Counted from the stretch's first letter, positions 34,300 through 56,900 are shown. The stretch: DNA of 64,000 bases from Bacteroidales bacterium UBA4814 (GCA_002402465.1 DHFW01000052.1:71971-135970), one strand, 5' to 3'. The notes: generated by a model from the sequence alone, not told the origin. Translations and numbers: made by a program.

Positions 34300-34653
34300 A
34301 TGAGCAGCAGTATAGAAGTTCCAAAGATTTGTCAGGACTGCGGAAAGTCTTTCATCGCAAAGACTACCGTTACCAAATTTTGCAGCCACAAGTGCGCCTC
34401 CCGAAACTACAAGAAGCGTAAGCGAGAAGGAAAGATTGAGGAGGTTGCCCCTATTGTGGTTCAGAGAATTGAATACAATCAGGAACAGTTAAAGCACAAA
34501 GATTTTTTGAGTGTTGATGAAACCTGCAAGCTCTTAGGTGCAAGCCGCATGACAATCTATCGACAGATAAAAGCCGGAAACATCAGAGCGGCAAAGATTG
34601 GCAGTCGCACAATCATCAAGAGAACCGAAATCGATAAACTGTTTCAGATATGA
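34300..34653 (+). CDS. zinc-ribbon + excisionase-family (HTH_17) DNA-binding protein
   Basis: CQDCGKSF...CSHKC zinc ribbon and a C-terminal LSVDETCKLLGASRMTIYRQIKAG HTH. An ATGA overlap joins it to the integrase gene. Confidence 0.6.
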   Translation: MSSSIEVPKICQDCGKSFIAKTTVTKFCSHKCASRNYKKRKREGKIEEVAPIVVQRIEYNQEQLKHKDFLSVDETCKLLGASRMTIYRQIKAGNIRAAKIGSRTIIKRTEIDKLFQI

Positions 34654-37288: not shown

Positions 37289-37581
37289 CGGAGATATTCG
37301 ATATGCTCCTGACTCTTTCTCAGGACATTAAAACAGTCAAAGCCTACCTCCTCAACTTCCATAAGTCACGCTTAGAGCAGTTCAGTGATGAGTGGATTGA
37401 TGGTCAGGTAGTGATGCAAACGCTGCATATCAGTAAAAGAACCCTCCAATCCCTTCGGGATAGTGGGGTTCTTCCCTACAGCCGAATCAATGGCAAATTC
37501 TACTACAAGGTTTCTGATATAGAAGCCTTACTGGAATCCAATTACTCACCTTCAAAATCAAAGCACTATGGAGGTAAGTAG
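37285..37581 (+). CDS. excisionase-family helix-turn-helix (HTH_17) protein
   Basis: VMQTLHISKRTLQSLRDSGVLPYSRINGKFYYKVSDIEALL. Its start overlaps the previous gene as ATGA. Confidence 0.7.
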   Translation: MTEIFDMLLTLSQDIKTVKAYLLNFHKSRLEQFSDEWIDGQVVMQTLHISKRTLQSLRDSGVLPYSRINGKFYYKVSDIEALLESNYSPSKSKHYGGK

Positions 37582-38491: not shown

Positions 38492-40309
38492 ATGGAAAGA
38501 AAAACATTCAATCCGCAGGATTGGCTTAATCAGCCAACCCCGCAACCGAAAGTTACAGAGCAACAAACTTTCAATACAGATTCTCAAATAGATGAAGTAG
38601 AACGCATCATTCAAAGCATTGAAGCCAACCGTACAGATATTACCTCCTCTTACAGCAATTGGGTCAATATCGGCTTTGCCTTTGCTGATGAGTTTGGTGA
38701 GAAAGGCAGAAACCTATTTCATAGAGTAAGCCAGTTCTATCCCGATTATTCCGCTACGGAGTGCGACAAGCAATTTGACAATTGCCTGAAATCAAAAGGT
38801 CATGGCGTTTCACTAAAGACCTTTTTCTACCTCGCCAAAGATGCAGGAATTGACATTGCCCCTCCACGGACAGAAAAACAGGATAAGCACACCTTCAAAA
38901 GTGAAAAGCTGAAGGACAGTCAAACAGATCACCGACAGCCCGAGAAGCAGGAACCGGAAGAAATGCCAACTTTTCCAGATTCCTTGTTTCCTGAACTTCC
39001 TGAATTTCTTCAAAAGGTTGTGGCGGTTGCCACTTCCAATGAGGAACGGGATATTCTTCTCCTTGGCTCTATTGGTGCTATCAGTGCATGTTTACCCAAA
39101 GTATCAGGCATCTATGACGGTAAGCGAGTATTTGCCAATCTATTCCTATTCATAACCGCCCAGGCATCCGCAGGAAAAGGCCGCTTGGTGCATTGCCGCC
39201 AGTTGGTCAATCCGGTTCATAAAGAACTACGGGAACAAGCCAAACTCCACAAGCAGCACTATGAATTGGAAATGGCAGAATACAACGCCAAGAAAGGCAA
39301 GGAAGAAGGCATTGAGAAACCAGCCAAACCACCTGAAAAGATGCTGTTCATTCCAGCCAACAACAGTTCAACGGGTGCTTACCAATTGTTGGGTGATAGT
39401 GATGGCAGAGGGCTGATATTCGAGACCGAAGGTGACACCTTAGCCCATGCCTTCAAGAGCGATTATGGAAATTACAGTGACGGCTTTAGAAAAGCCTTTC
39501 ACCATGAAACCATATCCTACTACCGCAGAACCGACCGTGAGTTTGTGGACATAGAAAGCCCTTGTCTTTCTACGGTCCTGTCAGGTACGCCAAAACAAGT
39601 TTCGGCATTGATACCCAACGCTGAAAACGGCTTATTCAGCCGTTTCATCTTCTATTTCATGAACGTTCGCCCGGTATGGAAAAATGTCTTTGCAAGCCAA
39701 ACGGATAATGGATTAGATGATTACTTTGAAGCCCTGGGCAATGAGTTCTATGAACTCTACAAAGTCATCATGCAGGATGAACCAAGGCAGTTCTACCTTA
39801 CGGCAGACCAGCAAGAGCAGTTCAATCAGTTCTTTGGGCAAATACAGGAAAAGTACCTTAATCTTCAGGGCTTGGACTACATGGCAACCATCAGAAGATT
39901 GGGTTTGATAGCCTTCCGTATCAGCATGATATTCTCCGCTTTGCGGATCATGGAAACGGGCGACACTTCCAAGAAGCTGATTTGTGAGGAAAGGGATTTT
40001 CAAGCTGCGCTTGAAATGGTGAAAGTATTGGTAAAGCACTCAAGCAAGGTATTTGGAGAGCTACCTCAAGAGGAATCCAAACCAAGCAGGATGAACAAGA
40101 AAGAAAAGTTCCTCTATGCACTACCGTACAACTTCAACCGCCAGAAGTATCTTGAAGTAGCCAATACCCTGAACATTCCGGCAAAGACAGCCGAAGGCTA
40201 TATCACCGCTTTTGCCAAATCGGGAATGGTTCACCGTGAATCTCAGGACAATTACATCAATACCTCACTTGAGGATATTCAGGATTCTAAGGATGCTGAG
40301 GACGTATAG
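38492..40309 (+). CDS. PriCT-2 + DUF3987-like P-loop (replicative helicase-like) protein
   Basis: WVNIGFAFADEFGEKGRNLFHRVSQ (PriCT-like) and ITAQASAGKGRL (Walker A-like). Confidence 0.55.
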   Translation: MERKTFNPQDWLNQPTPQPKVTEQQTFNTDSQIDEVERIIQSIEANRTDITSSYSNWVNIGFAFADEFGEKGRNLFHRVSQFYPDYSATECDKQFDNCLKSKGHGVSLKTFFYLAKDAGIDIAPPRTEKQDKHTFKSEKLKDSQTDHRQPEKQEPEEMPTFPDSLFPELPEFLQKVVAVATSNEERDILLLGSIGAISACLPKVSGIYDGKRVFANLFLFITAQASAGKGRLVHCRQLVNPVHKELREQAKLHKQHYELEMAEYNAKKGKEEGIEKPAKPPEKMLFIPANNSSTGAYQLLGDSDGRGLIFETEGDTLAHAFKSDYGNYSDGFRKAFHHETISYYRRTDREFVDIESPCLSTVLSGTPKQVSALIPNAENGLFSRFIFYFMNVRPVWKNVFASQTDNGLDDYFEALGNEFYELYKVIMQDEPRQFYLTADQQEQFNQFFGQIQEKYLNLQGLDYMATIRRLGLIAFRISMIFSALRIMETGDTSKKLICEERDFQAALEMVKVLVKHSSKVFGELPQEESKPSRMNKKEKFLYALPYNFNRQKYLEVANTLNIPAKTAEGYITAFAKSGMVHRESQDNYINTSLEDIQDSKDAEDV

Positions 40310-40428: not shown

Positions 40429-40722
40429 ATGTTTTTCGGTGAAAGAATTAGAGAGCTAAGAGAAAGCCAGGGATTGTTGCAACGGCAGTTAGCAGCAAAC
40501 CTTGAAATAGACACCCCCATGTTTAGTAAAATTGAACGTGGTGAACGGAAAGCCAAACGGGAACAGGTCCTGAAAATTGCCGAAATCCTCAAAGCAAGTC
40601 AGCAGGAATTATTGGCTTTATGGTTGGCAGACCAAATCAAGGAAATAGTAACAGACGAAGATCAGGCATTACAAGCCTTGAAAATCGCTCAAAAGGATAT
40701 AAACCAAGCAAACACCAAATAA
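40429..40722 (+). CDS. XRE-family HTH regulator (candidate controller protein of the R-M operon)
   Basis: FGERIRELRESQGLLQRQLAANLEIDTPMFSKIERGERKA. It ends 2 nt before the hsdM ATG. Confidence 0.8.
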   Translation: MFFGERIRELRESQGLLQRQLAANLEIDTPMFSKIERGERKAKREQVLKIAEILKASQQELLALWLADQIKEIVTDEDQALQALKIAQKDINQANTK

Positions 40723-40724
40723 GA

Positions 40725-42494
40725 ATGAACCAAGTACAACATAACGCTATTGTTAATTTCATCTGGAGTATTGCTGATGATGTGTTACGTGATGTTTATA
40801 CACGTGGAAAATACAGAGATATAATTTTACCATTTACCGTATTACGCAGACTGGATGCCATTTTGGAGCCTACCAAAGACAAAGTTTTGGAGATGCACCA
40901 AAAATTGAACGAAATGAAGATTGACAACCAATCTGCCCAATTACGCAAAACCAGTGGCTATGTGTTTTACAATACCTCTAACTACACCTTCAAAAGGTTG
41001 TTGAACGAACCGGGCAACATTCGCCAAAACTTAGAAACCTACTTGGATGGCTTTAGCAGCAACGTGCAAGACATCATCAGTAAGTTCAAGCTAAGAAACC
41101 AATTAGAGACCTTAGAAGAAGGCAACATCACCTTTCCATTGATTGAAAAGTTCTGCTCAAGCACCATTAACCTAAGCCCAATGCCTGTCACTGATAAAGA
41201 CGGTAATGTGGTAATGGAAGGCTTGACCAATTTAGGGATGGGCTATGTGTTTGAAGAATTGATACGAAAGTTCAACGAGGAGAACAACGAAGAAGCGGGA
41301 GAACACTTTACACCAAGGGAAATCATTCGCTTAATGACCCACCTGATTTTTGAACCGCTCAAAGGAAAGATAAAGGACGGAACGTATCTCATTTACGACC
41401 CTGCTTGTGGTAGTGGTGGTATGCTTACAGAAGCGGAACACTTCGCCAAAAAACTGAACCCAAAAGCTACTTTCCATTTGTACGGTCAGGAGGTAAACCC
41501 TGAAACCTATGCCATCTGTAAAGCAGACATGCTCATAAAAGATGAAGACCCTGAGAAGATTGCTTTCGGTTCTACACTGAGCAAAGACGGCTTTCCAAAC
41601 CTGCAATTTGACTTTATGATCAGTAACCCACCGTATGGGAAAACATGGAAAGTAGATGCAGATGCCATACTGGATAAAAAAGACATTATAGATCCTCGCT
41701 TTACCGTGGGTGTTCCCCGAGTAAATGACGGTCAATTGCTGTTTGTCATGAACATTGTTTCCAAGCTGAAAACCAACAGCGAATTGGGCAGCAGGGCAGC
41801 TACCATTCATAATGGTTCAGCGTTGTTTACAGGTGATGCAGGACAAGGAGAAACGGAAATACGAAAGTATCTCTTTGAGCATGATTTGCTGGAAGCGGTA
41901 ATTGCCTTACCCAACGATTTGTTTTACAACACGGGCATACCCACCTACATTTTTATCCTCAACAACAAGAAGGAAGAAAAACGAAAAGGGAAACTACAAC
42001 TCATCAATGTTACTTCTGAGGCTTTCTACAGCAAAATGCGCAAGCCATTAGGGAAAAAGCGGGTAGAGTTCAGCAAAGACCATATCCGCAAGATTACCGA
42101 CCTGTTTTTGAACTTCGAGAACAATGAGCACAGCATCATTCTCGATAACGAAGATTTTGGCTACAGCCAGATAACCGTACACCGTCCGCAGCGTGATGAA
42201 GACGGAAATATCATCAAAGATGCCAAAGGCAAACCGAAAAGCGACAATGCCCTCAAAGACAAAGAAAACATTCCTTTAAAGGACGACATTGATGCCTTTT
42301 TTGCCAAAGAGGTTACCCCTTTTGTGCCGGACGCCTGGTATAAAAAGAGCGAAACCAAAATTGGTTATGAAATAAACTTTGCCAAGTACTTCTACCAACA
42401 CAAAGCCCCAAGGAGCTTGGAGGAAATATCTGCCGATATTTTCAAGATTGAGGAAGAAACCGAGCATCTATTAAAAGAAATTGTTGAAGCGTAA
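40725..42494 (+). CDS. hsdM: Type I restriction-modification system methyltransferase subunit
   Basis: HsdM_N-like N-terminus, DPACGSGGML (AdoMet site) and NPPYGKTW (motif IV). I chose the start at ATG 40725 over 40620, which overlaps the XRE gene. Confidence 0.9.
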   Translation: MNQVQHNAIVNFIWSIADDVLRDVYTRGKYRDIILPFTVLRRLDAILEPTKDKVLEMHQKLNEMKIDNQSAQLRKTSGYVFYNTSNYTFKRLLNEPGNIRQNLETYLDGFSSNVQDIISKFKLRNQLETLEEGNITFPLIEKFCSSTINLSPMPVTDKDGNVVMEGLTNLGMGYVFEELIRKFNEENNEEAGEHFTPREIIRLMTHLIFEPLKGKIKDGTYLIYDPACGSGGMLTEAEHFAKKLNPKATFHLYGQEVNPETYAICKADMLIKDEDPEKIAFGSTLSKDGFPNLQFDFMISNPPYGKTWKVDADAILDKKDIIDPRFTVGVPRVNDGQLLFVMNIVSKLKTNSELGSRAATIHNGSALFTGDAGQGETEIRKYLFEHDLLEAVIALPNDLFYNTGIPTYIFILNNKKEEKRKGKLQLINVTSEAFYSKMRKPLGKKRVEFSKDHIRKITDLFLNFENNEHSIILDNEDFGYSQITVHRPQRDEDGNIIKDAKGKPKSDNALKDKENIPLKDDIDAFFAKEVTPFVPDAWYKKSETKIGYEINFAKYFYQHKAPRSLEEISADIFKIEEETEHLLKEIVEA

Positions 42495-43826
42495 ATGATG
42501 GTACACGATATACATACAGCAACTTGGCTATCCACTGTTCCGCAGCATTGGAAGACTTTGCGCATCAAAAATCTCTTTGCCGAGATAGATGAAAGAAGCG
42601 AAACAGGCGAAGAAGAATTGCTCTCAGTTTCTCATTATACCGGAGTAACCAAAAAGAGAGACAGCCTTGAAAACGAGGATGATTTTATCAGCAATGCCAA
42701 AACACTCGTGGGCTACAAAAAAGTAGCAGAGAATGATTTGGTTAGCAATATCATGTTGGCGTGGAATGGCAGCTTGGGCATTTCAAAATACGAGGGCATT
42801 ACAAGCCCTGCCTATTGTGTGTATCGCATCAAAGGAGACAATAACCCACACTATTACGGCTATTTGTTTTCTACAGCCATTATGAAGGCAGAGTTTAGAA
42901 AAAAATCCTTTGGCATTATAGATAGCCGCTTGCGCTTATACTCCGATAAGTTTTTCAGTATTCCGGTTACTGTTCCTCCAAAGGATGAGCAAGACCAAAT
43001 AGTGAATTACATAAAAGCCAAGTCCAAAAAAATAAAGCACTTCATCCAGAAAAAGCAAGCCTTTATTGAGTTGCTCAAAGAGCAACGGCAGGCGGTTATT
43101 AGCAAAGCAGTTACCAAAGGTATTAACCCAGAAGTTACCTTAAAGGAAAGCGGCATTAAATGGTTGGGTGATATTCCTGAGCATTGGGGTATTAGGCGAT
43201 TGAAATTTTGTTTGGAAGAAAAACTTAAATATGGTGCTAATGAAAGTGGTTTTGAATACAACCCGGATTGGTATAGATATATTAGGATCACAGACTTTAG
43301 TAAAGGGGGCATTTTAAGTGAAGAAAATAAATTATTCCTCCCAGTAGAAATTGGTAAAGAATACGAATTGAAGGATGGTGATATACTATTTGCCAGAAGT
43401 GGTGCTACTGTAGGCAAGACTTACCAGTTCAAGAAACAGGATGATTCGGAAAAATACTGCTATGCAGGATATTTGATAAAGGCTACTCCCGATGGCGAGA
43501 TAGTGTCATCTGACTTTTTGATGTTGTATTCAGAATCATTGGCTTTTGAGAATTGGAAAAATTCAATATTCAACAAAGCCACGATTGAAAATATTGGAGC
43601 GGACAAATACTCTGTATTACCAATTACAATACCCCCTAAAGAAGAACAAGCGGATATAATTCAATTTATCAAAGCCGAAACCGCCAAAATAGACCAGACC
43701 ATTGCGAAAGCAGAGAAAGAAATAGAACTCATCAAAGAATATCGGGAAGCCATGATAGCCGAAGCGGTATTGGGGAAACTGGATGTAAAGGTTCACACTA
43801 AAAAAGTATTGGAAAATGCCAAGTAA
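42495..43826 (+). CDS. hsdS: Type I R-M specificity subunit (two target-recognition domains)
   Basis: 443-aa protein with duplicated TRD/coiled-coil layout (PPKDEQDQIVNYI..., PPKEEQADIIQFI...). It directly abuts the hsdM stop. Confidence 0.85.
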   Translation: MMVHDIHTATWLSTVPQHWKTLRIKNLFAEIDERSETGEEELLSVSHYTGVTKKRDSLENEDDFISNAKTLVGYKKVAENDLVSNIMLAWNGSLGISKYEGITSPAYCVYRIKGDNNPHYYGYLFSTAIMKAEFRKKSFGIIDSRLRLYSDKFFSIPVTVPPKDEQDQIVNYIKAKSKKIKHFIQKKQAFIELLKEQRQAVISKAVTKGINPEVTLKESGIKWLGDIPEHWGIRRLKFCLEEKLKYGANESGFEYNPDWYRYIRITDFSKGGILSEENKLFLPVEIGKEYELKDGDILFARSGATVGKTYQFKKQDDSEKYCYAGYLIKATPDGEIVSSDFLMLYSESLAFENWKNSIFNKATIENIGADKYSVLPITIPPKEEQADIIQFIKAETAKIDQTIAKAEKEIELIKEYREAMIAEAVLGKLDVKVHTKKVLENAK

Positions 43827-45942
43827 AAGGATAACCAGACATATAGACCGTCTGATACTTGACCCTAACAATTATAGGTTCAAAGACAAACCAGAGTACA
43901 AGCCTGTAGATCAGGCCAACCTTGCTGATACCCGTGTTCAGCAGAGAACGCTAAACTTTATCCTTGGCAAAAACAATGGTAATGTAAAAGACCTCATTAG
44001 CAGCTTTACTACCAATGGCTTTTTGGATATTGACCAAATACAGGTCACTGAGGTAGGCGAAAACCTCTTGGTGCTAGAAGGCAACAGACGTATTGCCACT
44101 TTAAAGTATCTGTATGACGAATTTAAAAAGGGCAATGATGTAGGTCGCCTTACGGAATCCGACTTTAAAAGTGTCAACCTGGTATTGATAGAAGATGAGG
44201 AGCCAATTCAGCACTTAATCGCTATGGGGCTTCACCACATTAGTGGTAAAAAGAGATGGAGTGCCGTAAACGAATCTCAATTGGTAAGTGACCTCATCAG
44301 TAACTATAACAAAACAGAGCAAGAGGTATGTGATGCCCTTGGTATATCTACAGTAAAACTGCGTAGAGGTTTAAGAACACTTAGCCTTATCCAACAATAC
44401 AAGCAAAGCGACTATGGCGACCAATTTGAATCGCCTATGTACACCATTTTTGAGACTGTTATTTCAACACCGGAAATGCGTAATTGGATTGAGTGGAGCA
44501 ATGAAGATATGACCGCCCATAATGCAGTAAACTTAGAACGACTGTTTGGCTGGGTATCTCAAACCGAGGATATTGAAATTGATGAAGATGGAAATGAACG
44601 GGTCGCAACCAAAGAAGCGATTATCAGCCAATACAGGCAAATAAAGGAAATTGCTAAGTTCATAAACGACCCCAAAGCAATTGAACTGATGGAAGAAAGC
44701 CGTAGCATCGCTGAGGCTTATTCTTACAGTGATGTAATTGGTGAAAACAGGCTAAGAAATGCTTTAGATACCCTTCGCAAAGAAGTACAAGTCGCATTCA
44801 ATTTCAGCGAGCATTTAACTGAACCCGATTATGGCGAAATACAAAGGCTAAAAGACAAGTTAGACCGACTGATTCCTTCAAGTAAGGCAGTGGTGGCCAT
44901 CAATGATAAAAGATTGGCAAGCTACTTTACCACAGTTGATAATCATTTCAGCGAAATATTCGTCCACAGCTACAGAAAGCTCCACAAAATCAGAGTTAAG
45001 AACCTGTCTAAGGTCAACATATTTGTAGGTGGCAATAACTTGGGTAAAACCTCCCTACTGGAATGTTTTTACCTATTGAGCCAACTGAATGACATCAATG
45101 CATTCCTGGATTTAGAAAAATACAGGGGCAAATTCTATTCAGATTTTCATTCTAAATGGATTCACAAAAATTTCATTTCAGATATTGAATTAGAAGGCTC
45201 ATTTAACGGGGCTGAAACCAGTCTGCTCCTTTCAAAGACAGAAACCGAGGAGAATATAGAAAAGTCTGGATACCTATCTACCATAGAATCAGAAGGCAAA
45301 GTAAAGGACCTTACATTAGAGAGTTCTATTCATCTTTATACCAATAAAGCCCCGGAGCTTCACTTTACAAAGTCTCAGGTATTGTGTCCTGCCACTTTTA
45401 CAAGTCCATTCAGATACAACACCGAGTTGCTCAAAAAAGCTCACGCCAATGCAGTAACAGAGAAATATTTTGACCGGGTGATAGAGTTCATACAGACTCA
45501 TTTAGACCCAAGCATTGAAAAAATTGAGATGATCAGTGATGAAGGCGAAAGTAGGTTTATGGTTTCTTCTTCTCGCATAAATGAGGTGGTAGATATTACC
45601 AAGTATGGTGAGGGCTTACAACGGGTGTTCGAGATAGCCCTATTGATGGTTTACAGCAAAGATGGTGTGATATGTATTGATGAGGTTGATAGTGCAATCC
45701 ACAAGTCCTTATTGATTGGGTTTACTAAGTTCATACAACAAACAGCAGAGCAATTTAATGTTCAGGTGTTCCTTTCTACCCACAGCAAAGAGTGTATTGA
45801 TGCCTTCGTAAAGAATGACTACCACAATGATTTCATAAGAGCCTACGCCCTATCGGAATTAGATGGCGAAATAGCTTGCAAGTACATTGAGGGAGGCCGT
45901 TTAGAAAAGTTAATTGATTCAATAAATTTTGATATAAGATAA
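43816..45942 (+). CDS. ParB/Srx-like N-terminal domain + HTH + ABC-type (AAA_15/21, OLD/AriA-like) ATPase fusion
   Basis: LVLEGNRRIATLKYL (aa 88-92, nt 44077-44091), GISTVKLRRGLR HTH-like segment, Walker A GGNNLGKTS (nt 45028-45051), GEGLQRVF signature-like motif, Walker B ICIDEVDSAIH and an LSTHS H-loop. Confidence 0.65.
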   Translation: MPSKRITRHIDRLILDPNNYRFKDKPEYKPVDQANLADTRVQQRTLNFILGKNNGNVKDLISSFTTNGFLDIDQIQVTEVGENLLVLEGNRRIATLKYLYDEFKKGNDVGRLTESDFKSVNLVLIEDEEPIQHLIAMGLHHISGKKRWSAVNESQLVSDLISNYNKTEQEVCDALGISTVKLRRGLRTLSLIQQYKQSDYGDQFESPMYTIFETVISTPEMRNWIEWSNEDMTAHNAVNLERLFGWVSQTEDIEIDEDGNERVATKEAIISQYRQIKEIAKFINDPKAIELMEESRSIAEAYSYSDVIGENRLRNALDTLRKEVQVAFNFSEHLTEPDYGEIQRLKDKLDRLIPSSKAVVAINDKRLASYFTTVDNHFSEIFVHSYRKLHKIRVKNLSKVNIFVGGNNLGKTSLLECFYLLSQLNDINAFLDLEKYRGKFYSDFHSKWIHKNFISDIELEGSFNGAETSLLLSKTETEENIEKSGYLSTIESEGKVKDLTLESSIHLYTNKAPELHFTKSQVLCPATFTSPFRYNTELLKKAHANAVTEKYFDRVIEFIQTHLDPSIEKIEMISDEGESRFMVSSSRINEVVDITKYGEGLQRVFEIALLMVYSKDGVICIDEVDSAIHKSLLIGFTKFIQQTAEQFNVQVFLSTHSKECIDAFVKNDYHNDFIRAYALSELDGEIACKYIEGGRLEKLIDSINFDIR

Positions 45943-46814
45943 TGGCTCAGAATTTATTGTACATACTCACAGAGGGGTCTCATGATGCTGCGTTTGTTTA
46001 CCGGATACTTAAAACAAACGGCTTTACCACAAACAATGAGTTAATCAAGAATTATCCTCAACCGTTGAATGACTTTCTCTCAAGAGACATACTGAATGTA
46101 AGCATTCCAGAGGTAAAAATTCAGGAGGCTCGTTCAAGGTTTCTACCAGCCTATGTGATGAACAGAGGCAACAATCTTGTTCTTATCTATTCGATTGGTG
46201 GTGAAAGTAAAGCTGACATTAGAATTTCATTGATAAAGGCACTAAACGCCCTGAATGAACCCGACCCGGATGCTATACAAGCTATTCCAGACACATCCAT
46301 ATCAGTGCTTTACTTTTTTGATGCCGATAACTTAGGTACTGAAGCAAGAATGAACCAGGTGATCGAAGAATGCAAATTGGCATTTCCAAAAGTCGCCTTT
46401 GAGGAAAAGTATGACCCTGCTGAATTTCATCTGTTTGAGGATATACAGGTTGGTGCATACATATTTAGAAAGCCTGATGCAGATGAAGGAATGTTAGAAG
46501 ACGTACTGTTGCCTTTAATGAGAGATGGCAATGATGATATTTTTCAAGCTGCGGAAGGCTTTTTGGCTGTTAATCATACCTGCACACTATTCAGTGCTTC
46601 CTTAAAATTGGACGCCTCAGGTCAAATTTTAAAAGTGAATGGCGAAAAGTACAGTCATAAAAAATCCTTGGTAGGCACTGTAGGCCAACTAAGAAAAAGC
46701 GGAAAATCCAATACTGTTTGCATCAGTGATGCTGAATACATTACAGATGCCAAAATCAATGCAAACGGTACTTGTCTGGATATTATGAGTAGAATAAACA
46801 AAGTATTGATTTAA
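45942..46814 (+). CDS. TOPRIM-like protein (DUF4435/DUF3226/RloB-like), partner of the preceding ATPase
   Basis: N-terminal YILTEGSHDAAF (E-G-x-x-D) and a downstream YFFDADN (DxD). TAATG overlap with the ATPase gene. Confidence 0.5.
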   Translation: MAQNLLYILTEGSHDAAFVYRILKTNGFTTNNELIKNYPQPLNDFLSRDILNVSIPEVKIQEARSRFLPAYVMNRGNNLVLIYSIGGESKADIRISLIKALNALNEPDPDAIQAIPDTSISVLYFFDADNLGTEARMNQVIEECKLAFPKVAFEEKYDPAEFHLFEDIQVGAYIFRKPDADEGMLEDVLLPLMRDGNDDIFQAAEGFLAVNHTCTLFSASLKLDASGQILKVNGEKYSHKKSLVGTVGQLRKSGKSNTVCISDAEYITDAKINANGTCLDIMSRINKVLI

Positions 46815-46818
46815 GGAA

Positions 46819-49773
46819 ATGCATACAACAGATACATCAGAAAAGGGCTTAGAAACGATCATAGAAAAGCATTTAATCAATCACAATGGCTTTATTGCAA
46901 GCTATAGTGCCGACTATGACCGTGACCTCTGCATCAATGAAAAGCTGTTGTTCGAGTTTTTGGCAGCAACGCAACCCAATGCCCATGACACTATTATCAA
47001 AAGAGGTAAAGACAAATTCCTGAAACGCCTTTCAGACCAAATTCGTCAGAAAGGTATCATTGAAATATTGCGCAATGGGGTCAAGGATTTGGATTTAAGA
47101 GTACAGCTCTACTTTAAAAAGCCAACCTCTCTACTTAACGATAAAGCTCAGAAGCAATACAGCAGCAATATTTTTTCTGTTACCCGACAGTTATACTACA
47201 GTCTGGAAAACAGCAACTCTTTAGACATGGTGTTATTTATCAATGGTTTACCATTGAGCACCTTTGAATTAAAGAACCAATGGACCGGTCAGAATGTAAA
47301 ACACGCCATACGCCAATACCAAACTGACAGAGATCCGAAAGAACCCTTATTTGCCTTTGGCAGATGTATGGTTCACTTCGCTGTAGATGCCGATTTGGTT
47401 TACATGACCACTCACCTCAACAGTACAAAGACATTTTTCTTACCCTTTAATAAGGGAAATAATGATGGTGCAGGCAATCCGGTAAACCCCGAAGGTTTAA
47501 AAACTGATTACCTCTGGAAAGATATTTTGACCAAAGACAGCTTGAGCAACATATTGGAAAACTTCGCTCAAATTGTTGAGGAAAAGGACGAAGACACTGG
47601 AAAGGTTAAACGTAAACTGATTTTTCCTCGATACCACCAACTCAGAGCGGTAAAAAAACTGCTGCATCATTCCAAAGAAAACGGTGTTGGCCAGAAATAC
47701 CTCATTCAACATTCGGCTGGTTCAGGCAAATCAAATTCAATTACCTGGTTAGCCCACCAGTTGGTGAGTTTACACGATAGTGAAAATACAGAGACCGTTT
47801 TTGATAGTGTTATTGTAGTAACGGACAGGCGTGTCCTGGACAAGCAAATTAGAGATAACATCAAGCAATTTGCTCAGGTCAGTAGTGTTGTTGAAGCGAT
47901 TGATAAAGGAAGCCGACAATTAAAACAGGCCCTTGAAGATGGAAAGAAAATCATTGTTACCACAGTTCAGAAGTTCCCATTCATCATAGATGAAATCGGA
48001 GCTTTACAGGCAAAGAAATTTGCCATCATTATTGATGAAGCACACAGCAGCCAAAGTGGTGAAACGGCCAGTAAAATGAATTGGGTGCTGTCCGATAAAG
48101 AAGTTACATACGGTGAAGAACCCGAACCACCAACCTCTGAGGATATTGTCAATAACTTGATAGAGAACCGTAAAATGCTGAAAAACGGAAGCTATTTTGC
48201 ATTTACGGCCACCCCAAAAAACAAGACATTGGAAACCTTTGGAGAAAAAACAGCCGAAGGTAAATTCATAGCTTTTGATAATTACACCATGAAGCAGGCC
48301 ATTGAGGAGGAATTTATCCTTGATGTGCTAAAGAATTACACCACCTATCAATCCTACTATAAATTAGATAAAGCTGTTGAAGACAACCCTGAGTTTGAAA
48401 CACGGCAAGCCAACAAAAAGCTACGTGCTTATGTAGAAAGCCACCCTTTCTCCATCATGGAAAAATCAAAAATCATGTTAGACCACTTCCATGCGGACAT
48501 TAGAAAGCTCATCAATGGTCAGGCAAAAGCAATGGTTGTTTGCAAAAGCATTAAAAACGCCATTCTTTACTATCAGGCTTTCAACGAGTATCTGAAAGAA
48601 ATAAACTCGCCATACAAAGCCATTGTAGCTTTTTCAGGCACAAAAGAAATAGACGGAGAAGATTGGGATGAAGCCAGATTAAACGGTTTCCCGAGCAATG
48701 ACATTCCAACTGAGTTCAAGAAAAAAGAGTACCGCTTCCTGATAGTTGCCAATAAGTTTCAAACAGGTTTCGATCAGCCACTATTACATACCATGTATGT
48801 AGATAAAAAATTGGCGGATGTTCAGGCAGTACAAACTTTATCAAGACTCAATAGAGCTTACAAACCTTACAAAGAAGACACCTTTGTGATGGATTTCTTT
48901 AATACCACAGAGGATATTAAAAAAGCATTTGAGCCTTTCTATACCACCACCATTTTAAGTGAAGAAACAGACGCTAATAAACTCAATGATTTACAAGATG
49001 CCTTAGACAATGCTCAGGTCTATTCTCAGGATGATGTTGTCAACTTCACCGACTTGTATTTCAAGGAAGCAGACAGGCAGGAATTAGACCCAATCATTGA
49101 TAAGTGTGTTGCAGAGTTTAAAACTGAACTGAATGAAGATGCACAGATTGATTTCTATGTAAAGGCGAAATCCTTCTTTAGAACGTATGCATTCCTTTCT
49201 AAGCTGCTATCCTTCAATAATTCTTATTGGGAAAGGTTGTATTGGTTTCTGAAATTCCTGATTCCTAAAATCAAGCCGGAGGAAATTGAGGATTTAGCCA
49301 AGGGCATTCTGGAAGCAATAGACCTTGATAGTTACAGACTAACCCGAACAACCCAAGAGAACATCAAACTAAGTGGTGATGAAGAATTAGACCCTACTCC
49401 GCCAGTAATGAAGGGTAAAAAGGGAGAACTTGGTTTTAATGAGTTGGACGCTATCCTCAAAGAATTTAATACAAAGTTTGGCATTGATAACTGGACGGAT
49501 GATGATAAGGTAAAGAAATTCCTGTTCGAGCAATTACCAGCCGATTTTGCCCGTGATGAGGCCACAGTCAATGCTGTTAAAAACAGTGACAAACAGAATG
49601 CAAAAATCACCTCTGATAAAAAGGTTGAGGATTTGATGCAGGATGTGATTTTCCAATACACCGACTTGTATAAAAAATTCACGGATGATCCAGACTTCAA
49701 ACGCCAGTATTTAGACTTTGTATTTGATAAGATTTGGAATCAGCAAACTAATCTTCAAAACAGACCTAAATAA
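46819..49773 (+). CDS. hsdR: Type I restriction endonuclease subunit R
   Basis: N-terminal PD-(D/E)xK (LDMVLFINGLPLSTFELKN), helicase motif I HSAGSGKSNS, motif II IIIDEAHSSQ and SRLNR. Confidence 0.9.
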   Translation: MHTTDTSEKGLETIIEKHLINHNGFIASYSADYDRDLCINEKLLFEFLAATQPNAHDTIIKRGKDKFLKRLSDQIRQKGIIEILRNGVKDLDLRVQLYFKKPTSLLNDKAQKQYSSNIFSVTRQLYYSLENSNSLDMVLFINGLPLSTFELKNQWTGQNVKHAIRQYQTDRDPKEPLFAFGRCMVHFAVDADLVYMTTHLNSTKTFFLPFNKGNNDGAGNPVNPEGLKTDYLWKDILTKDSLSNILENFAQIVEEKDEDTGKVKRKLIFPRYHQLRAVKKLLHHSKENGVGQKYLIQHSAGSGKSNSITWLAHQLVSLHDSENTETVFDSVIVVTDRRVLDKQIRDNIKQFAQVSSVVEAIDKGSRQLKQALEDGKKIIVTTVQKFPFIIDEIGALQAKKFAIIIDEAHSSQSGETASKMNWVLSDKEVTYGEEPEPPTSEDIVNNLIENRKMLKNGSYFAFTATPKNKTLETFGEKTAEGKFIAFDNYTMKQAIEEEFILDVLKNYTTYQSYYKLDKAVEDNPEFETRQANKKLRAYVESHPFSIMEKSKIMLDHFHADIRKLINGQAKAMVVCKSIKNAILYYQAFNEYLKEINSPYKAIVAFSGTKEIDGEDWDEARLNGFPSNDIPTEFKKKEYRFLIVANKFQTGFDQPLLHTMYVDKKLADVQAVQTLSRLNRAYKPYKEDTFVMDFFNTTEDIKKAFEPFYTTTILSEETDANKLNDLQDALDNAQVYSQDDVVNFTDLYFKEADRQELDPIIDKCVAEFKTELNEDAQIDFYVKAKSFFRTYAFLSKLLSFNNSYWERLYWFLKFLIPKIKPEEIEDLAKGILEAIDLDSYRLTRTTQENIKLSGDEELDPTPPVMKGKKGELGFNELDAILKEFNTKFGIDNWTDDDKVKKFLFEQLPADFARDEATVNAVKNSDKQNAKITSDKKVEDLMQDVIFQYTDLYKKFTDDPDFKRQYLDFVFDKIWNQQTNLQNRPK

Positions 49774-51872
49774 TGCCAAAACACTGTTTCAACATACTAA
49801 CATTCAATCACCCAAGTGAGGAATTTACCTTCTACTTTACAGATAAAGAGCAGGAAGGAGTTACAAGGATATTCCATGCTTTAGTTCCTAAAGAGGTCAT
49901 TGAAAAGTATGGTGAACAGGAGCATTTTTACACTTCATTCGGGCAGCAGTTAGATGGTTTCTTGCCAATCAACAAATCAACCGCACCCACATTTGAAACC
50001 ATTAAAACCAAGGAAGGAATTGAAAAATCCGTTCCGGTTTCCAATTCAGCTTTTTCCTCATCCATTCTCAAGCGATACTACAACGGGCTAATTCACAATC
50101 ACTTCAAGTCCAACGGCTTCTTGGTCAAACCTAATTTTGTAAGCGATACAGAAGTATGGTTGCCAAGTGAGGTACAGGATTCAGAAGGCACATACAAAAT
50201 CTTCGACCGCTATTCCTTGAAGGTTCAATTCAAAACAGTTTCCACCAGCTTAGAGCTTTTGGTGACATTTGAAGGGAGATCCAAGATTTTCCGAACACCA
50301 GTATCAGAGCTTTTTGAAGAAGTGCCAGTAAAGGCTTTCAATTGGGTAGTTTTTGAAAAAGGATTGTACCGCTTTGATGAATTGCCTGACGAAGGAAAAA
50401 GACAATACGACAAGGTTTATCCAGTATGGAACTTTGAAATCAGGGATGCTTTGCAACAGGAAACGGAAGCACCCGACAAGACCAACAAATACAAGAAGTT
50501 CAAAACTGCCATAGATAAATTCTACAAGCAGCATCTAAATACACAGGAGTTTAAGGCAATTATTCCAATTTCATCCAATGGCTTTATTCCGGTGGAAGAA
50601 GCTCGAATAGGTACAGTAGAAAAGAGCAGTAATAAATTGATTTTCGGAAACCAGAAACCGCATCATATTCCTTACTACGGCATCACAGAACATGGCCCAT
50701 TTGAATTAAGCCCTTCTTCTAAGATTCATTTCTTCTTCATTATCCATGAAGATGATAAGCCCGTAGCAACCACCATCCACAAGTATTTCAATGGCAATCT
50801 GCAAGGCTTCAAAGGGCTGTCAAGATTCATTCATACGCCATACCACCCCGATAAGGACTTGGCAATCTATTTCACCAACAGGGAGAATCCTTGGCCTGAG
50901 TTGTATGAACAAATCAATGACAAAGACTTTGACCCGGACGTTCAGCATTTAGCCATTTACATAAGCCCCATTAGCAAGAATGTTTCAGACAAATCCCGAA
51001 GGATGGTCTATTACAAGCTAAAAGAACTCTTGCTCAAAAAAGGTGTTTCCTCTCAGGTGATTGACCCTGAGAAGGTAATTACCAACGACAAGTATCATTT
51101 CAGCTTGCCAAACATTGCTATTGCCATACTCGCAAAGCTCAATGGCACTCCTTGGCGTTTAGACACAAAGCTGAAGAATGAATTGATTGTTGGTGTAGGA
51201 GCATTCAAACATTCGGAAGTAGATGTGCAATATATCGGTAGTGCTTTCAGTTTTTCCAATACAGGAAAATTCAACCGCTTTGAATGTTTTCAGAAAGACC
51301 AAACAAAAGAGTTGGCAGGCTCAATCCTAAGAGCAGTTAAAGACTATGTGAATGTAAATTCAGGAATCCGAAGGCTTGTAATTCACTTCTACAAGGACAT
51401 GAGTAGAGAGGAAGTAGAACCGATTGAAAACGGCCTGAAAGAATTAGAATTGAATATTCCGGTCTTTATCGTCACCATCAACAAAACGGAATCCTCCGAT
51501 ATTGTTGCTTTTGATTTGGACTGGAAAGATTTGATGCCTGTAAGTGGCACATTCATCAAATTAGGCTACAACAGGTTTCTACTGTTTAACAATACCAGGT
51601 ATTCCGCATCAGAGTTCAATTTCAATGATGGATTTTCATTTCCGGTAAAGCTCAAAATTAATTGCTCCAATCCTGAATTGGTGGATGATTACAAAACAGT
51701 CAAAGAGCTTATCGATCAAGTGTATCAATTCAGTCGCATGTACTGGAAATCAGTAAGACAACAAAATTTGCCCGTAACAATCAAGTACCCTGAAATGGTG
51801 GCAGAAATGCTCCCCTACTTTGAAGGCAACGAGATTCCTGATTACGGAAAAGACAATCTTTGGTTTTTATGA
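49773..51872 (+). CDS. prokaryotic Argonaute (MID-PIWI, long-type, predicted catalytically inactive)
   Basis: MID pocket Y413-x3-K417...Q428...K455 (VYYKLKELLLKKGVSSQVI...IAILAKLNGTPW). The PIWI block ELIVGVGAFKH has G476 (gga 51198-51200) where the first catalytic Asp belongs. C-terminal LPVTIKYPEMVAEM. Confidence 0.8.
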   Translation: MPKHCFNILTFNHPSEEFTFYFTDKEQEGVTRIFHALVPKEVIEKYGEQEHFYTSFGQQLDGFLPINKSTAPTFETIKTKEGIEKSVPVSNSAFSSSILKRYYNGLIHNHFKSNGFLVKPNFVSDTEVWLPSEVQDSEGTYKIFDRYSLKVQFKTVSTSLELLVTFEGRSKIFRTPVSELFEEVPVKAFNWVVFEKGLYRFDELPDEGKRQYDKVYPVWNFEIRDALQQETEAPDKTNKYKKFKTAIDKFYKQHLNTQEFKAIIPISSNGFIPVEEARIGTVEKSSNKLIFGNQKPHHIPYYGITEHGPFELSPSSKIHFFFIIHEDDKPVATTIHKYFNGNLQGFKGLSRFIHTPYHPDKDLAIYFTNRENPWPELYEQINDKDFDPDVQHLAIYISPISKNVSDKSRRMVYYKLKELLLKKGVSSQVIDPEKVITNDKYHFSLPNIAIAILAKLNGTPWRLDTKLKNELIVGVGAFKHSEVDVQYIGSAFSFSNTGKFNRFECFQKDQTKELAGSILRAVKDYVNVNSGIRRLVIHFYKDMSREEVEPIENGLKELELNIPVFIVTINKTESSDIVAFDLDWKDLMPVSGTFIKLGYNRFLLFNNTRYSASEFNFNDGFSFPVKLKINCSNPELVDDYKTVKELIDQVYQFSRMYWKSVRQQNLPVTIKYPEMVAEMLPYFEGNEIPDYGKDNLWFL

Positions 51873-52279
51873 ACACCTCACTAGAAGAAAAACTTAGAAA
51901 GAAATCCATTAAACCAACGGCCATGCGCCTTTTGGTTTTACAATGCTTAATGGAGCAAAACCGTGCATTAAGTTTGAATGAACTAGAAGTGCTTTTCGAA
52001 AATGCTGATAAGTCAACCATATTCAGGACGCTCAAAACATTTCAAGAAAACTACTTGGTACACAGAATCAATGACGGTAGTGGAGCAATCAAATATGCCC
52101 TTTGTGATGATGACTGTATTTGCAGTTTGGAAGATAACCACATTCATTTCTTGTGTACTAAATGCGAAAAAACCTATTGCCTAAAGGATACCCCTATCAC
52201 AACTCCGAATTTACCAAATGGATTTAGAGCAAACTTTGCCAATTACCTGATTGAAGGCATCTGCTCTGCTTGTTCTTAG
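51869..52279 (+). CDS. Fur-family metalloregulator
   Basis: RLLVLQCL...STIFRTLKTFQENYLVHRI winged helix and CxxC pairs (CTKCEK, CSAC). ATG 51869 overlaps the pAgo TGA as ATGA. Confidence 0.75.
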   Translation: MNTSLEEKLRKKSIKPTAMRLLVLQCLMEQNRALSLNELEVLFENADKSTIFRTLKTFQENYLVHRINDGSGAIKYALCDDDCICSLEDNHIHFLCTKCEKTYCLKDTPITTPNLPNGFRANFANYLIEGICSACS

Positions 52280-52340
52280 AACTTTGCAATGGCATTGCAC
52301 TCCTTAATTACTTGCTTTGTGTTCGAATTAAAACTTGAAC

Positions 52341-54509: not shown

Positions 54510-54512
54510 ACC

Positions 54513-55112: not shown

Positions 55113-55909
55113 TGCAAAAAGCAATATTTCATATTTCAAAAATGGACTGCCCTTCGGAAGAGCAAATGATTCGTATGAAGCTAGCCGACTATGATTCCAT
55201 ACAGCAACTTGATTTTGACATTCAAGACAGAAAACTAACTGTAATGCACCTTGGCAATTCATCTGAAATATTGAATCTACTAGAAGAGCTGAAATTGGAT
55301 ACAAAGTTGGTTTCCGAATCAAAAACGACAGAGTCAATAAACTACTCTACAGACTCCAAAAAAGAGCGAAAACTACTATGGGCAGTACTACTGATTAATT
55401 TCTCATTTTTTGTAATTGAGATACTCTTTGGTTGGATTTCAAAGTCAATGGGGTTAGTGGCTGATTCATTAGATATGTTGGCTGATTCTATTGTGTACGC
55501 ACTCAGTTTAATGGCAGTGGGGCAATCTGCTATCCGCAAAAAGAACGTTGCGAAATGGAGTGGATATTTTCAATTACTCCTAGCCCTAATAGGATTAGTT
55601 GAAGTGATAAGACGTTTTATAGGTTCAGAAGAAATGCCTGTATTTCAAACCATGATTGTAATCTCTATTCTTGCCTTAATAGCCAATGGTCTATCGCTAT
55701 ACCTTATTCAAAAATCCAAAAGCAAAGAAGCCCACATGCAGGCTTCAGCGATTTTTACTTCCAATGATATTATCATAAATATTGGAGTAATTATAGCAGG
55801 CACACTTGTCTATTTTACCAGCAGTCAGATTCCTGACCTTGCAATTGGTTCAATAGTTTTTTTGATAGTCATTCGGGGTGCTTTCCGAATACTTAAATTA
55901 GCAAAGTAA
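55103..55909 (+). CDS. cation diffusion facilitator-type metal transporter with N-terminal metal-binding-like segment
   Basis: FHISKMDCPSEEQMIRMKL, then transmembrane helices with SLDMLADS-type motifs. Confidence 0.7.
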   Translation: MDLMQKAIFHISKMDCPSEEQMIRMKLADYDSIQQLDFDIQDRKLTVMHLGNSSEILNLLEELKLDTKLVSESKTTESINYSTDSKKERKLLWAVLLINFSFFVIEILFGWISKSMGLVADSLDMLADSIVYALSLMAVGQSAIRKKNVAKWSGYFQLLLALIGLVEVIRRFIGSEEMPVFQTMIVISILALIANGLSLYLIQKSKSKEAHMQASAIFTSNDIIINIGVIIAGTLVYFTSSQIPDLAIGSIVFLIVIRGAFRILKLAK

Positions 55910-56900
55910 TCCCTCCCACGGCCATGTGCCTGCGGTAGGTGCATTTCATTCGTTCCTCATTCCATTTACCAACCTTCAGCACCGCACAGCAAGAGTAGCC
56001 CGTTATTCCATTCCGCTGCGCTACATTCCATACCGTGCCACACTTGCTTTCCCCAACGCACCCCCCAACGCAGGTAAAGCGGTGTTCGTCAGTCGTTCCG
56101 TTTTGTTCCGCAAAAACATATCTGCAAGGGTAAAATGCACTCCCTTCGGTCGCCCTTGCATATACCGTTCACTTACCAGTTCGTTTGCGCTCCAGTGGGT
56201 GCTCACTCACTGCCGTTCACTTGTTTTGCTTCACACACTCTCTCCCTCCTCACTCGCAGCTATTTCATCCCCCCAAACCCCTTCTAAGGTGTTCGCTACA
56301 CTCACAATATTTTTTATTGGGGGTCTGCCGCTGCTTATTGTTTTTGCTCGCCTGCGGGTCGCTGCGGGCTGATCGGGCTGTCATGTTTTTTGCTTTCCCC
56401 AATGTGCTTTCAGTCGCTTCGTTTCAGTCAATCGTTCCTCATTCCTTCAACTCAGCCCCTTTCAGCACCGCTCACAAGAGTAGCTCTTTCACTTCACTAC
56501 ACGAGCCAACGCACCGTCATTCCGCAATCTGCCTGCAATCCTCCTCCAAAGGGTTTGTACTCCAATCAAAAAATACAAACCCTACCAAAGCTATTGCAGG
56601 CAGTTATTGCTCCATTCCTTTCCAACAATCGTTTCGTTCCGTTCAGTCGCTACCCTTGCCTTTGCCGACCCTGATGCAAAAAAACACGCCAGCCCTGCCG
56701 TAAACGGTAGGCGTCTGCCGCTCTCATTCTTCGGGCTTTTGCAGCCACCACCCTTGCTCCGCTCGCAGGCGGCTCGCAGAAATGGCTTCGCCTTGGTTTA
56801 CCTGCGTTCACTCAGCTTTCGCAATCAAGCTTATCTCCGATTGATATATTTAAGTATTTGCTTAAATATTAAACTCTTTTTCCTTTCTTTGTATTTATTT
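55910..56900. other. ~1-kb pyrimidine-rich (plus strand) non-coding block with internal imperfect direct repeats
   Basis: Four overlapping low-complexity ORFs occupy all three plus frames and almost none the minus strand. Repeats: cgttcctcattcc (55951/56433), ttcagcaccgc-cac-aagagtagc (55975/56461) and gtctgccgct (56323/56713). Confidence 0.6.

Follow-up and report, generated by a model that had tools for sequence, protein, structure and literature searches.

A catalytically inactive long-B Argonaute in the backbone of an integrative element of Bacteroidota

The subject of this work is a prokaryotic Argonaute (pAgo) encoded in a stretch of 64,000 nucleotides (nt) from Bacteroidales bacterium UBA4814 (GCA_002402465.1 DHFW01000052.1:71971-135970), which is referred to throughout as the window and whose positions are counted from its first letter. 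To judge from alignments and gene order, this pAgo belongs to a published subclade of long-B pAgos that is associated with the primase-polymerase AgaPP, and in which no effector is evident (PMC10620215; PMC11724360). Its guide-binding pocket is retained, both metal-binding aspartates of the PIWI active site are lost, and the gene is a conserved part of the backbone of an integrative, replicative element in Bacteroidota. The mode of action that we prefer, and to which we give about even credence, is that RNA-guided binding to DNA would hinder rival DNA directly, without abortive infection.

The long-B pAgos have been divided according to their neighbours into BPAN, BPAS and BPAM (Song 2023; PMC10620215). 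The same study described a further subclade tied to 'og_54, VirE N-terminal domain protein', encoded 2-8 genes upstream; what this subclade does was deferred to later work. The og_54 protein is the primase-polymerase AgaPP, which is BT4734-like, and its neighbour, a PriCT-DUF3987 protein, is the helicase AgaPH (Fu 2025; PMC11724360). According to Fu 2025, the integrase, AgaPP, AgaPH and the long-B pAgo are what is conserved in a mobile element that is probably replicative and whose remaining genes vary, and the function of the pAgo is a matter that 'should be addressed in future'. A literature search on AgaPP found no work later than that study.

Identity and fold of the Argonaute

The open reading frame (ORF) of the pAgo, which a preliminary description of this DNA had put at 699 amino acids (aa), encodes an Argonaute beyond doubt, as its profile and fold matches attest. 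The Pfam Piwi domain (PF02171) is matched significantly over residues 410-679 (E=9e-15; 55 bits, the cut-off being 28.9), and the PADLOC pAgo model PDLC02385 matches the protein from end to end with 961 bits. The strings on which the preliminary description relied, VYYKLKELLLKKGVSSQVI, AILAKLNGTPW, IVGVGAFKH and IHFYKDMS, are all present in the ORF, with correct residue numbers. Among PDB chains searched with phmmer, the nearest sequences are AfAgo (1e-16), RsAgo (2e-13) and EcAgo (2e-7). A profile of 51 homologues, reaching down to 52% identity and used for all conservation counts below, finds the same three proteins at 3e-25, 2e-17 and 6e-16, and its best matches are all long-B. Short pAgos are weakly similar to this profile (E about 1e-4 or worse), and TtAgo-type proteins are not retrieved by it among PDB sequences at E<=10, except for CtAgo at 0.058.

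An AlphaFold2 model, made with the family alignment as input, has a mean predicted local distance difference test (pLDDT) of 86 and a predicted template modelling score (pTM) of 0.83. Its best Foldseek matches in the PDB are the ternary complexes of RsAgo (6d8p, 6d8a and 5awh; E 4e-27, TM 0.66, ~800-840 alignment columns), and the next are PIWI and AGO proteins; 200 PDB chains were matched at E<=0.001, and of the 50 listed all 50 are Argonaute or PIWI proteins. Since the match extends over the full-length Argonaute fold, the protein is a long Argonaute and not one composed of MID and PIWI only.

Guide pocket and active site

In AfAgo, residues Lys127, Ser136, Gln137 and Lys163 touch the 5'-phosphate of the guide, Tyr123 stacks on base 1, and the carboxylate of the C-terminal Leu427 holds the Mg2+ ion of the pocket (PMC10104839). 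A HMMER alignment pairs the first four of these with K417, S427, Q428 and K455 of the window pAgo and Tyr123 with Y413, whilst Leu427 corresponds to the C-terminal Leu699 in the terminal sequence W-F-L-stop. These five paired residues and the terminal W-F-L are invariant in 51/51 homologues. The sole residue of the AfAgo pocket without an equivalent is Gln159, where the pAgo family has an invariant Ala451. The claim of an intact YKQK-type MID pocket (Y413/K417/Q428/K455) is thus upheld by the alignment and by the invariance alike, and we infer that the protein can hold a 5'-phosphorylated guide.

The active site was mapped by aligning the authentic TtAgo sequence, taken from plasmid pTT27, to the family profile with hhalign. 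In this alignment the aspartate D478 (GFDAG) of TtAgo falls on G476 (GVGAF) and D546 (LRDG) falls on Y540 (HFYK), and manual extension through the conserved LP.P....D/E motif places D660 on E674. The Glu finger of TtAgo, E512, sits in a 9-residue stretch that is absent from the pAgo family, in which the finger loop is shortened; the conserved acidic residues nearest to this position, E513 (49/51) and E504 (45/51), are candidates. Among the homologues, the residue at 476 is always Gly (51/51), that at 540 is Tyr 45 times and Phe 6 times, and that at 674 is Glu in 47/51. The aspartate D542 of the string KDMS is not conserved, and H538, K541, D576 and D581 are invariant. We accept this mapping of the tetrad only on account of the motif anchors (ELxVG, the strand before RDG, and PxPxxxAD), which are consistent with AfAgo, RsAgo and EcAgo; the strand of the first aspartate aligns with IIGTGAT in AfAgo and VVGMGLA in RsAgo.

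With both metal-binding aspartates replaced, by G476 and Y540, it follows that the pAgo cannot slice. EcAgo (EcBPAN, 23wq), for which the absence of cleavage has been shown, has the comparable tetrad pattern G492/E532/Q568/D700 (PMC13535254), to be set against G476/?/Y540/E674 in the window protein. The preliminary description had recognized the loss of the first aspartate at a gga codon, and had read the usual h-R-D-G strand as IHFYKDMS; both observations are correct, and the alignment adds the loss of the second aspartate, which had been overlooked, so that no complete DEDX tetrad is found. Its wider proposal of a guide-binding, non-slicing protein similar to the long-B type gains support from the pocket match, the lost pair of aspartates and the long-B relatives.

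Placement within the long-B clade

The window pAgo belongs to the long-B clade by the published labels of its orthologues together with its long-B matches in the PDB. The protein WP_100626894.1 of Algoriphagus sp. XAY3209 appears in the table of Ryazansky et al. 2018 as a 699-aa longB pAgo with the YK motif and no tetrad, whose domains are a 'small' PAZ at 173-254, MID at 308-460 and PIWI at 461-680. It is the pAgo of the related locus L013/P0005, and is about 81-82% identical to the window protein, without gaps and at equal length. The more distant relative from Draconibacterium orientale (L030, 55% identical) is also longB in that study, and through these two labels the window pAgo takes its place in the published phylogeny. 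Ryazansky 2018 states that the tetrad is missing from every long-B pAgo, that nearly all are of the YK type, and that most have a reduced PAZ, termed PAZ*.

A Pfam scan of the pAgo gives no match to PAZ, ArgoN or ArgoL at E<=1, which agrees with the earlier remark that no PAZ could be recognized; a small PAZ is nevertheless annotated at residues 173-254 of the orthologue, and the lack of a recognizable motif would be explained by the small PAZ of the clade. The AlphaFold model contains a long beta-hairpin at residues 141-173, which may also form part of PAZ*. The PAZ of EcAgo is itself a hairpin-like structure of ~60 residues.

Gene neighbourhood across related loci

Related loci, designated here by L numbers, came from a genome scan, which gave 36 loci with pAgos 54-93% identical, and from exact-protein look-ups, which gave ten more, down to 52%. 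All ORFs were clustered over 37 loci, in which the 10-kb flanks are often too short to reach the primase-polymerase gene. The pAgo gene is always found downstream of, and on the same strand as, a block comprising DUF6617, HTH_17, BT4734-like_N, PriCT_2-DUF3987 and an XRE helix-turn-helix (HTH) gene. A BT4734-like gene is present in 18/37 clustered loci, and additionally in L038, L039 and L041. The XRE HTH gene lies directly upstream of the pAgo, with a gap of 22 nt, in 9 loci; elsewhere 1-6 genes stand between them. This intervening slot may hold a type I restriction-modification (R-M) system with embedded PDC-M38, RhuM, YgjP-like, DUF3800 or DUF5655 proteins, Eco57I/MmeI-type enzymes, type III-like R-M or Dnd/HerA-like proteins, among others. 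Immediately before the pAgo, the window and the 46 other loci have HsdR, RhuM, YgjP, DUF5655, another protein, or the HTH of those 9 loci. Downstream of the pAgo, about 20 loci have a Fur-like regulator with Czc RND, CDF or TonB metal cargo; the other downstream neighbours are AraC, GmrSD, an SF1 helicase with a DarT-domain giant protein, TmtA, PD-T4-1, a McrB-like ATPase, or the non-coding element nc1 that is described below. The pAgo anchors a slot in which defence and resistance cargo is swapped. The metal cargo includes a CzcA-like RND protein of ~1450 aa fused to an outer-membrane domain, as well as CzcB.

In none of 47 loci is a SIR2, TIR, nuclease, bAgaN-like or transmembrane partner conserved beside the pAgo. 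Within the window, Pfam and PADLOC searches of ten further ORFs between 38492 and 56372 revealed no SIR2, TIR, Mrr/Cas4-like or membrane effector, the four ORFs downstream of the pAgo (51860-55909) gave no PADLOC match, and PADLOC found no APAZ protein. A downstream effector of the BPAN, BPAS or BPAM type, which would be a PD-(D/E)XK nuclease, a SIR2 or a transmembrane protein within an operon of 2-3 genes, is absent, the window pAgo being followed by a Fur-family regulator. The earlier statement that no canonical effector is adjacent accordingly holds good, in the window as in the related loci. HsdR and a TOPRIM-like protein, which had been named as the nearest nuclease-type proteins, are both present, the latter being PDC-M38B; as partners of the pAgo they do not stand, being exchangeable cargo.

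Two sets of candidate effectors were considered and rejected. NOV_C proteins, encoded just downstream of the pAgo in L029, L038 and L040, were examined as PD-(D/E)XK effectors; PADLOC identifies them as the stand-alone systems TmtA and PD-T4-1, and they are missing from most loci. The ORFs c19 (56185-56703) and c20 (58101-58388), conserved in 9 loci, were taken as possible small membrane effectors and proved to be S/L/P-rich nonsense in C/T-rich non-coding DNA.

As a separate observation, a 495-aa protein is encoded at L041:8453-9940, directly upstream of a pAgo of 54% identity, and is an odd neighbour for a long pAgo. PADLOC matches it weakly, on the one hand to the PNTD (APAZ-like) region of the short-pAgo partner Aga_SIR2-PNTD1-PNTD2 (E=5e-12) and on the other to the N-terminal section of a pAgo model with 1121 positions.

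The association of long-B pAgos with particular neighbours has been reported before. RND efflux pumps are present in 14% of long-B operons and HsdS is enriched there, both without explanation (Ryazansky 2018). These associations, and that with VirE-N, probably reflect shared carriage on one element family, on which the pumps and HsdS would travel as cargo.

The pAgo as a backbone gene under selection

The order of the backbone is Xis-like HTH, integrase, DUF6617, HTH_17, primase-polymerase, helicase, XRE HTH, variable defence cargo, pAgo, variable cargo, DUF6943 and DUF6266. Pairwise divergence of the pAgo correlates with that of the helicase (r=0.71) and of the primase-polymerase (r=0.76), a value reached in 0/2000 permutations in each case. 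The correlation is much weaker with the XRE HTH (r=0.30) and with the Fur-like protein (r=0.29), which is largely independent. The ratio of nonsynonymous to synonymous substitution rates (dN/dS) of the pAgo is 0.03-0.08, and this range includes pairs of 'HTH-pAgo-Fur' loci without an adjacent defence gene. Such values indicate a functional protein under strong purifying selection, and the selection is strong even where an HTH gene alone precedes the pAgo. Among sequenced plasmids, a tblastn search with the pAgo found no relative above 27% identity, all being <27%, and among phages it found none.

The element in the window

The window carries the pAgo on an integrated element of ~26 kb, delimited by putative boundaries, whose features are collected in Table 1. 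All genes from 34300 to 58115 lie on the + strand, in one direction with the pAgo, and the GC content is lower across 34-56 kb of the element (0.38-0.42) than in the left flank (0.45-0.52). A direct repeat of 11 bp, CTAATCTGTTG, occurs at 34162-34172 and 60100-60110 and would represent attL and attR; homology to related elements ends at 60113. The element is flanked by mnmE on the left and an aldo-keto reductase gene on the right, and the 64-kb window holds no tRNA gene. The primase-polymerase gene is the eighth gene upstream of the pAgo on the same strand, and its product has the motifs DFD at 214-216 and GLK at 247-249; those of AgaPP are DFD208-210, GLK241-243 and VD (PMC11724360). The R-M cargo is inserted between the XRE HTH and the pAgo, such that the hsdR stop overlaps the pAgo ATG (TAATG, 49770-49775), and the pAgo TGA in turn overlaps the next ATG (ATGA, 51869-51872). 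After MerT-HMA comes a short ORF on the opposite strand that looks spurious, and then DUF6943 and DUF6266 on the + strand.

Table 1. Features of the pAgo and of its element, in window positions
Feature	Position	Strand	Basis or remark
HTH_17, excisionase (Xis)-like	34300-34653	+	precedes integrase
Tyrosine integrase	34650..35744	+	Pfam Phage_integrase, Phage_int_SAM_5, Arm-DNA-bind_5; same cluster in 11 related loci
DUF6617, then two HTH_17 genes	between integrase and primase-polymerase	+	Pfam
BT4734-like_N (formerly VirE_N) AEP primase-polymerase, AgaPP-like	37568..38488	+	PF08800 E=9e-21
PriCT_2-DUF3987, AgaPH-like helicase	38492..40309	+	PF13148 E=5e-63, PF08707; directly follows primase-polymerase
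XRE-family HTH	40429..40722	+	Pfam HTH_31/HTH_3
Exchangeable cargo: type I R-M hsdM, hsdS, hsdR with embedded PDC-M38A/B	40620..49773	+	PADLOC, Pfam
pAgo coding sequence	49773..51872	+	699 aa + stop; ORF scan, Pfam, PADLOC
N-terminal lobe (N, L1, reduced PAZ, L2)	49773..50672	+	residues ~1-300; high-confidence AlphaFold model, Foldseek; no Pfam match
Reduced PAZ (PAZ*), predicted	50289..50534	+	residues 173-254; transferred from annotation of 82%-identical orthologue
MID	50694..51152	+	residues 308-460; AfAgo alignment
Y413 codon	51009-51011	+	pocket residue
K417 codon	51021-51023	+	pocket residue
S427/Q428 codons	51051-51056	+	pocket residues
K455 codon	51135-51137	+	pocket residue
PIWI, catalytically dead	51153..51869	+	residues 461-699; ends in invariant W-F-L
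G476 (GGA), first catalytic Asp position (TtAgo D478, EcAgo G492)	51198..51200	+	hhalign; 51/51 Gly
Y540 (TAC), second catalytic Asp position (TtAgo D546, EcAgo Q568)	51390..51392	+	hhalign
E674, fourth tetrad position (TtAgo D660), within LPVTIKYPEMVA	51792..51794	+	manual extension; RsAgo Glu in same motif
Fur-family regulator, opens metal-resistance cargo	51869..52279	+	Pfam; not effector
Cargo after Fur: TonB-dependent receptor, PEMT-like, CDF, 0.9-kb non-coding stretch, ArsR, MerT-HMA	downstream	+	Pfam
nc1, conserved structured non-coding element	55907..56824 (core about 56067-56808)	.	~0.75-0.9 kb; alignment, RNAalifold

Several further observations were made on this DNA. The proteins PDC-M38A (a 708-aa AAA_15/AAA_21 ATPase, 1003 bits) and PDC-M38B (a 290-aa DUF3226 protein, 415 bits), encoded at 43816-46814, form a candidate defence pair between hsdS and hsdR, and the cassette recurs in L001, L003, L008, L014 and L025. 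ORFs of different downstream clusters (Fur-like, AraC-like, SF1 helicase and CDF) open 13 nt inside the 3' end of the pAgo gene; the ATGA overlap was read directly in the window only. Just outside the right end, at 60232-60294 (+), lies a degraded second pAgo fragment, SRMYWKSVRRQSLPVTIKYP, which corresponds to residues 654-674 at 81% identity (tblastn E=3e-5), with DIVAFD (residues 576-581) in front of it. An earlier related element probably stood at this site and left the fragment behind, and a similar remnant is found at L041:13638-13902. A 33-nt unit, AAAAAAATCTCCACCC(T/A)(A/T)CGGGTAGTATTTTTT, resembles a bidirectional terminator, with a short hairpin between an A-run and a T-run; it occurs at 58201-58233 and 58564-58596, 363 nt apart, and is also inserted in the variable nc1 hairpin loop of L067 and L110. 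A scan of 40-57 kb for sigma-70 promoters and terminators, which is ill-suited to Bacteroidota, gave fewer sites than shuffled sequence.

The non-coding element nc1

The element nc1 contains no credible ORF, such ORFs as it has giving S/L/P-rich nonsense, and it was the nonsense translation of c19 and c20 that led to its recognition. By nucleotide identity, nc1 is the most conserved part of the backbone: between the window and L007 it is 96.0% identical, compared with 83.7% for the pAgo gene and 87.1% for the left arm, and the corresponding values for nc1 and the pAgo gene are 82.6% and 71.8% with L016, and 85.2% and 72.8% with L015. Where no cargo follows the pAgo (L006, L016 and L012), nc1 starts 28-45 nt past the pAgo stop.

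RNAalifold applied to 18 nc1 sequences, including divergent copies, predicts 168 pairs, of which 90.5% are paired as against 34-45% with the partners slid. Pairs changed on both sides number 65/168, compared with 26.2 +/- 3.4 in shuffles (0/500) and 14-31 in slid alignments. The structure is closed by a long-range helix, AACGCAGGTAAAGCGGT / GCC.TTGGTTTACCTGCGTT. For the 108 pairs predicted on both strands, G-U and A-C combinations are equal (26 against 29 cells); there is thus no strand signal, and RNA and single-stranded DNA are not distinguished. No match to nc1 was found in Rfam at the gathering and E<=10 thresholds. The element may be a replication origin or a large non-coding RNA.

A metagenome scan with the 15-mer TTTTGCTCGCCTGCG, which is too short for the purpose, returned real nc1-like sequence in only 6/120 loci. 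Divergent nc1-like copies occur at L110:5479-6270, after HsdR, YgjP, a 106-aa ORF and an HTH/ImmA-like gene, and at L111:9783-10164, where the genes for a BREX-like ATPase, a Dam-type methylase and a Rha-like protein precede; in both loci the 5-10 kb upstream contain no pAgo. These copies tie nc1 to the element family, and not strictly to the pAgo.

Cargo modules are flanked by additional, incomplete copies of nc1 that cover its first ~170 nt at L042:13127-13277, L014:18438-18607, L001:19909-20077, L044:15979-16129 and L008:21860-22097, and a piece of ~60 nt is repeated inside the window nc1 (55946-56004 and 56428-56489). The pattern looks like a recombination site for the gain and loss of cargo.

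Comparison with known Argonaute systems

The closest parallel is the cluster of Seonamhaeicola sp. S2-3, by its published description. Both have an integrase and a DFD/GLK primase-polymerase with a PriCT-DUF3987 helicase directly after it, followed on the same strand by the pAgo 2-8 genes downstream, with an HTH gene and variable defence genes between; both are elements of lower GC, and both lack a dedicated effector. They differ in cargo, which in the window is type I R-M with PDC-M38 and then metal resistance, and in integration, the Seonamhaeicola cluster ending at a tRNA gene whereas the window element lies next to mnmE.

RsAgo (5awh, 6d8a) shares with the window protein a YK-type pocket and a Gly at the first Asp position; its PVTI.Y.E motif likewise contains a Glu, and its PAZ is reduced, as is predicted for the window pAgo. 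It is, however, a protein of 777 aa with ~16% identity in the structure alignment, it has a predicted nuclease gene downstream, its finger loop has a 3-residue insertion relative to the window pAgo that carries E569, and it is not known on such elements. EcAgo resembles the window pAgo in its tetrad, and is further characterized by its short PAZ, its use of RNA guides against DNA targets and the absence of slicing. Directly downstream of EcAgo is encoded the PD-(D/E)XK nuclease bAgaN, with which it associates in an 8:8 stoichiometry, and the complex destroys DNA and is lethal to the cell; the window has no such gene. AfAgo (AF1318; 1w9h, 6t5t) is the closest PDB sequence, and has both the C-terminal Leu and a Gly at the first Asp position (IIGTGAT, compared with IVGVGAF). 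It consists of MID and PIWI only, with a separate N-L1-L2 protein, whereas the window pAgo has its N-lobe in the same chain.

In the short pAgo systems (SPARTA, SPARSA, SPARDA and SiAgo) the PIWI is likewise inactive, and the guide serves for the detection of invader nucleic acid. In contrast to SPARTA, SPARSA and SPARDA, the window pAgo is 699 aa long with an N-lobe of its own, and lacks an APAZ partner in the window. It also differs from the active long-A proteins TtAgo and CbAgo, in not having a complete DEDX tetrad.

Mode of action

In the proposal of direct, RNA-guided binding, the pAgo would load 5'-phosphorylated small RNAs sampled from the transcriptome, by analogy with RsAgo and EcAgo, and the guide-loaded protein would bind complementary DNA of incoming or competing plasmids, phages and rival elements. 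Stable guide-directed binding would block the replication or transcription of the target, which might also be exposed to host nucleases; the cell would not be killed, and this interference would protect the partnership of host and element. Two related elements suggest that the role is accessory and defence-like rather than essential to replication: in L110 the pAgo is replaced, its position being occupied by an HTH-ImmA-like gene, and L047 keeps the pAgo and the right arm with no replication module within 10 kb.

A number of points weigh against this proposal. The type of guide, the type of target and the phenotype would all be extrapolated from proteins that are ~16% identical in structure alignments. 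Every well-understood inactive pAgo acts via an effector, which would make an effector-free protein the exception, and even RsAgo is accompanied by its predicted nuclease gene. The hhalign probability to TtAgo is low, at 14.5%, the alignment being anchored by conserved motifs only. Moreover, the steady linkage of the pAgo to the replication module fits a role in the life cycle of the element equally well.

In that role the pAgo could control copy number or replication, act in exclusion or incompatibility, or cooperate with AgaPP, AgaPH or nc1, and we regard this as unlikely, though worthy of serious attention. The pAgo is fixed in the backbone and diverges together with the helicase and primase-polymerase, whose co-evolution with it is also noted in PMC11724360, but such co-divergence is expected for any pair of genes on one backbone. 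Similarly, the place of nc1 shortly after the pAgo stop in cargo-free loci would suit a joint function, yet nc1-like sequence also follows defence cargo without a pAgo in L110 and L111. The degraded second pAgo copies beside the window element and in L041 imply that related elements meet at the same sites. The separation of the pAgo from any replication module within 10 kb in L047 argues against a role in the life cycle, and a dead Argonaute would be unable to resolve or cut DNA.

We consider it distinctly improbable that the pAgo is an abortive-infection sensor like those of BPAN, BPAS and BPAM, signalling to an effector encoded at another place in the genome or to an adjacent nuclease (HsdR, or the PDC-M38 pair). 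All characterized inactive pAgos do signal to effectors; HsdR has a PD-(D/E)XK-type N-terminal domain (Pfam) and precedes the pAgo in 13/37 clustered loci, and in the window the two genes overlap. The neighbours nevertheless change from locus to locus, 9 loci having an HTH gene alone upstream, no SIR2, TIR, bAgaN-like or transmembrane protein recurs, and the NOV_C neighbours are self-contained systems. The known effector genes of long-B pAgos, og_15, og_44 and og_100, are always co-operonic with a conserved structure in which the pAgo lies upstream of the effector (PMC10620215), and abortive infection has been judged 'less likely' for this subclade (Fu 2025; PMC11724360).

More speculative still, and in our estimation a long shot, is the idea that the effector-less pAgo works with the nucleic acids of its own element in place of a protein partner. 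It might read, guard or regulate nc1 or draw guides from it, and could for example exclude related elements or control replication by AgaPP and AgaPH.

There is hardly any likelihood that the pAgo is a decaying relic which has lost its effector and its function: the catalytic residues and a partner are indeed absent and truncated pAgo remnants lie nearby, but, with few exceptions, the 120 top-scoring cluster representatives listed are about 700 aa long, and the low dN/dS and more than 100 invariant residues, including the whole guide pocket, contradict decay. Equally implausible is a cryptic nuclease with a non-canonical active site, for which the remaining E674 and E513 and the invariant H538, K541, D576 and D581 might be invoked, since neither metal-binding position is an Asp in any of the 51 homologues, the first being G and the second Y/F, EcAgo with the same pattern does not cleave (PMC13535254), and the whole long-B clade is without the tetrad (Ryazansky 2018).

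Significance

The identity of the window pAgo is ordinary, and the interest of the protein lies in the mode of action of its subclade, which is an acknowledged question (Song 2023; Fu 2025). Nearly every inactive pAgo that is understood acts as the sensor for a killer enzyme or a pore, which it activates, and the AgaPP-associated subclade is the main partnerless group among the long-B pAgos. Should the pAgo instead work with the nucleic acids of its own element, it would constitute a guide-directed module for incompatibility or copy control without an enzyme effector. If, as we propose, binding is all that it needs to interfere with rival DNA, the protein would be a simple module for programmable DNA binding.

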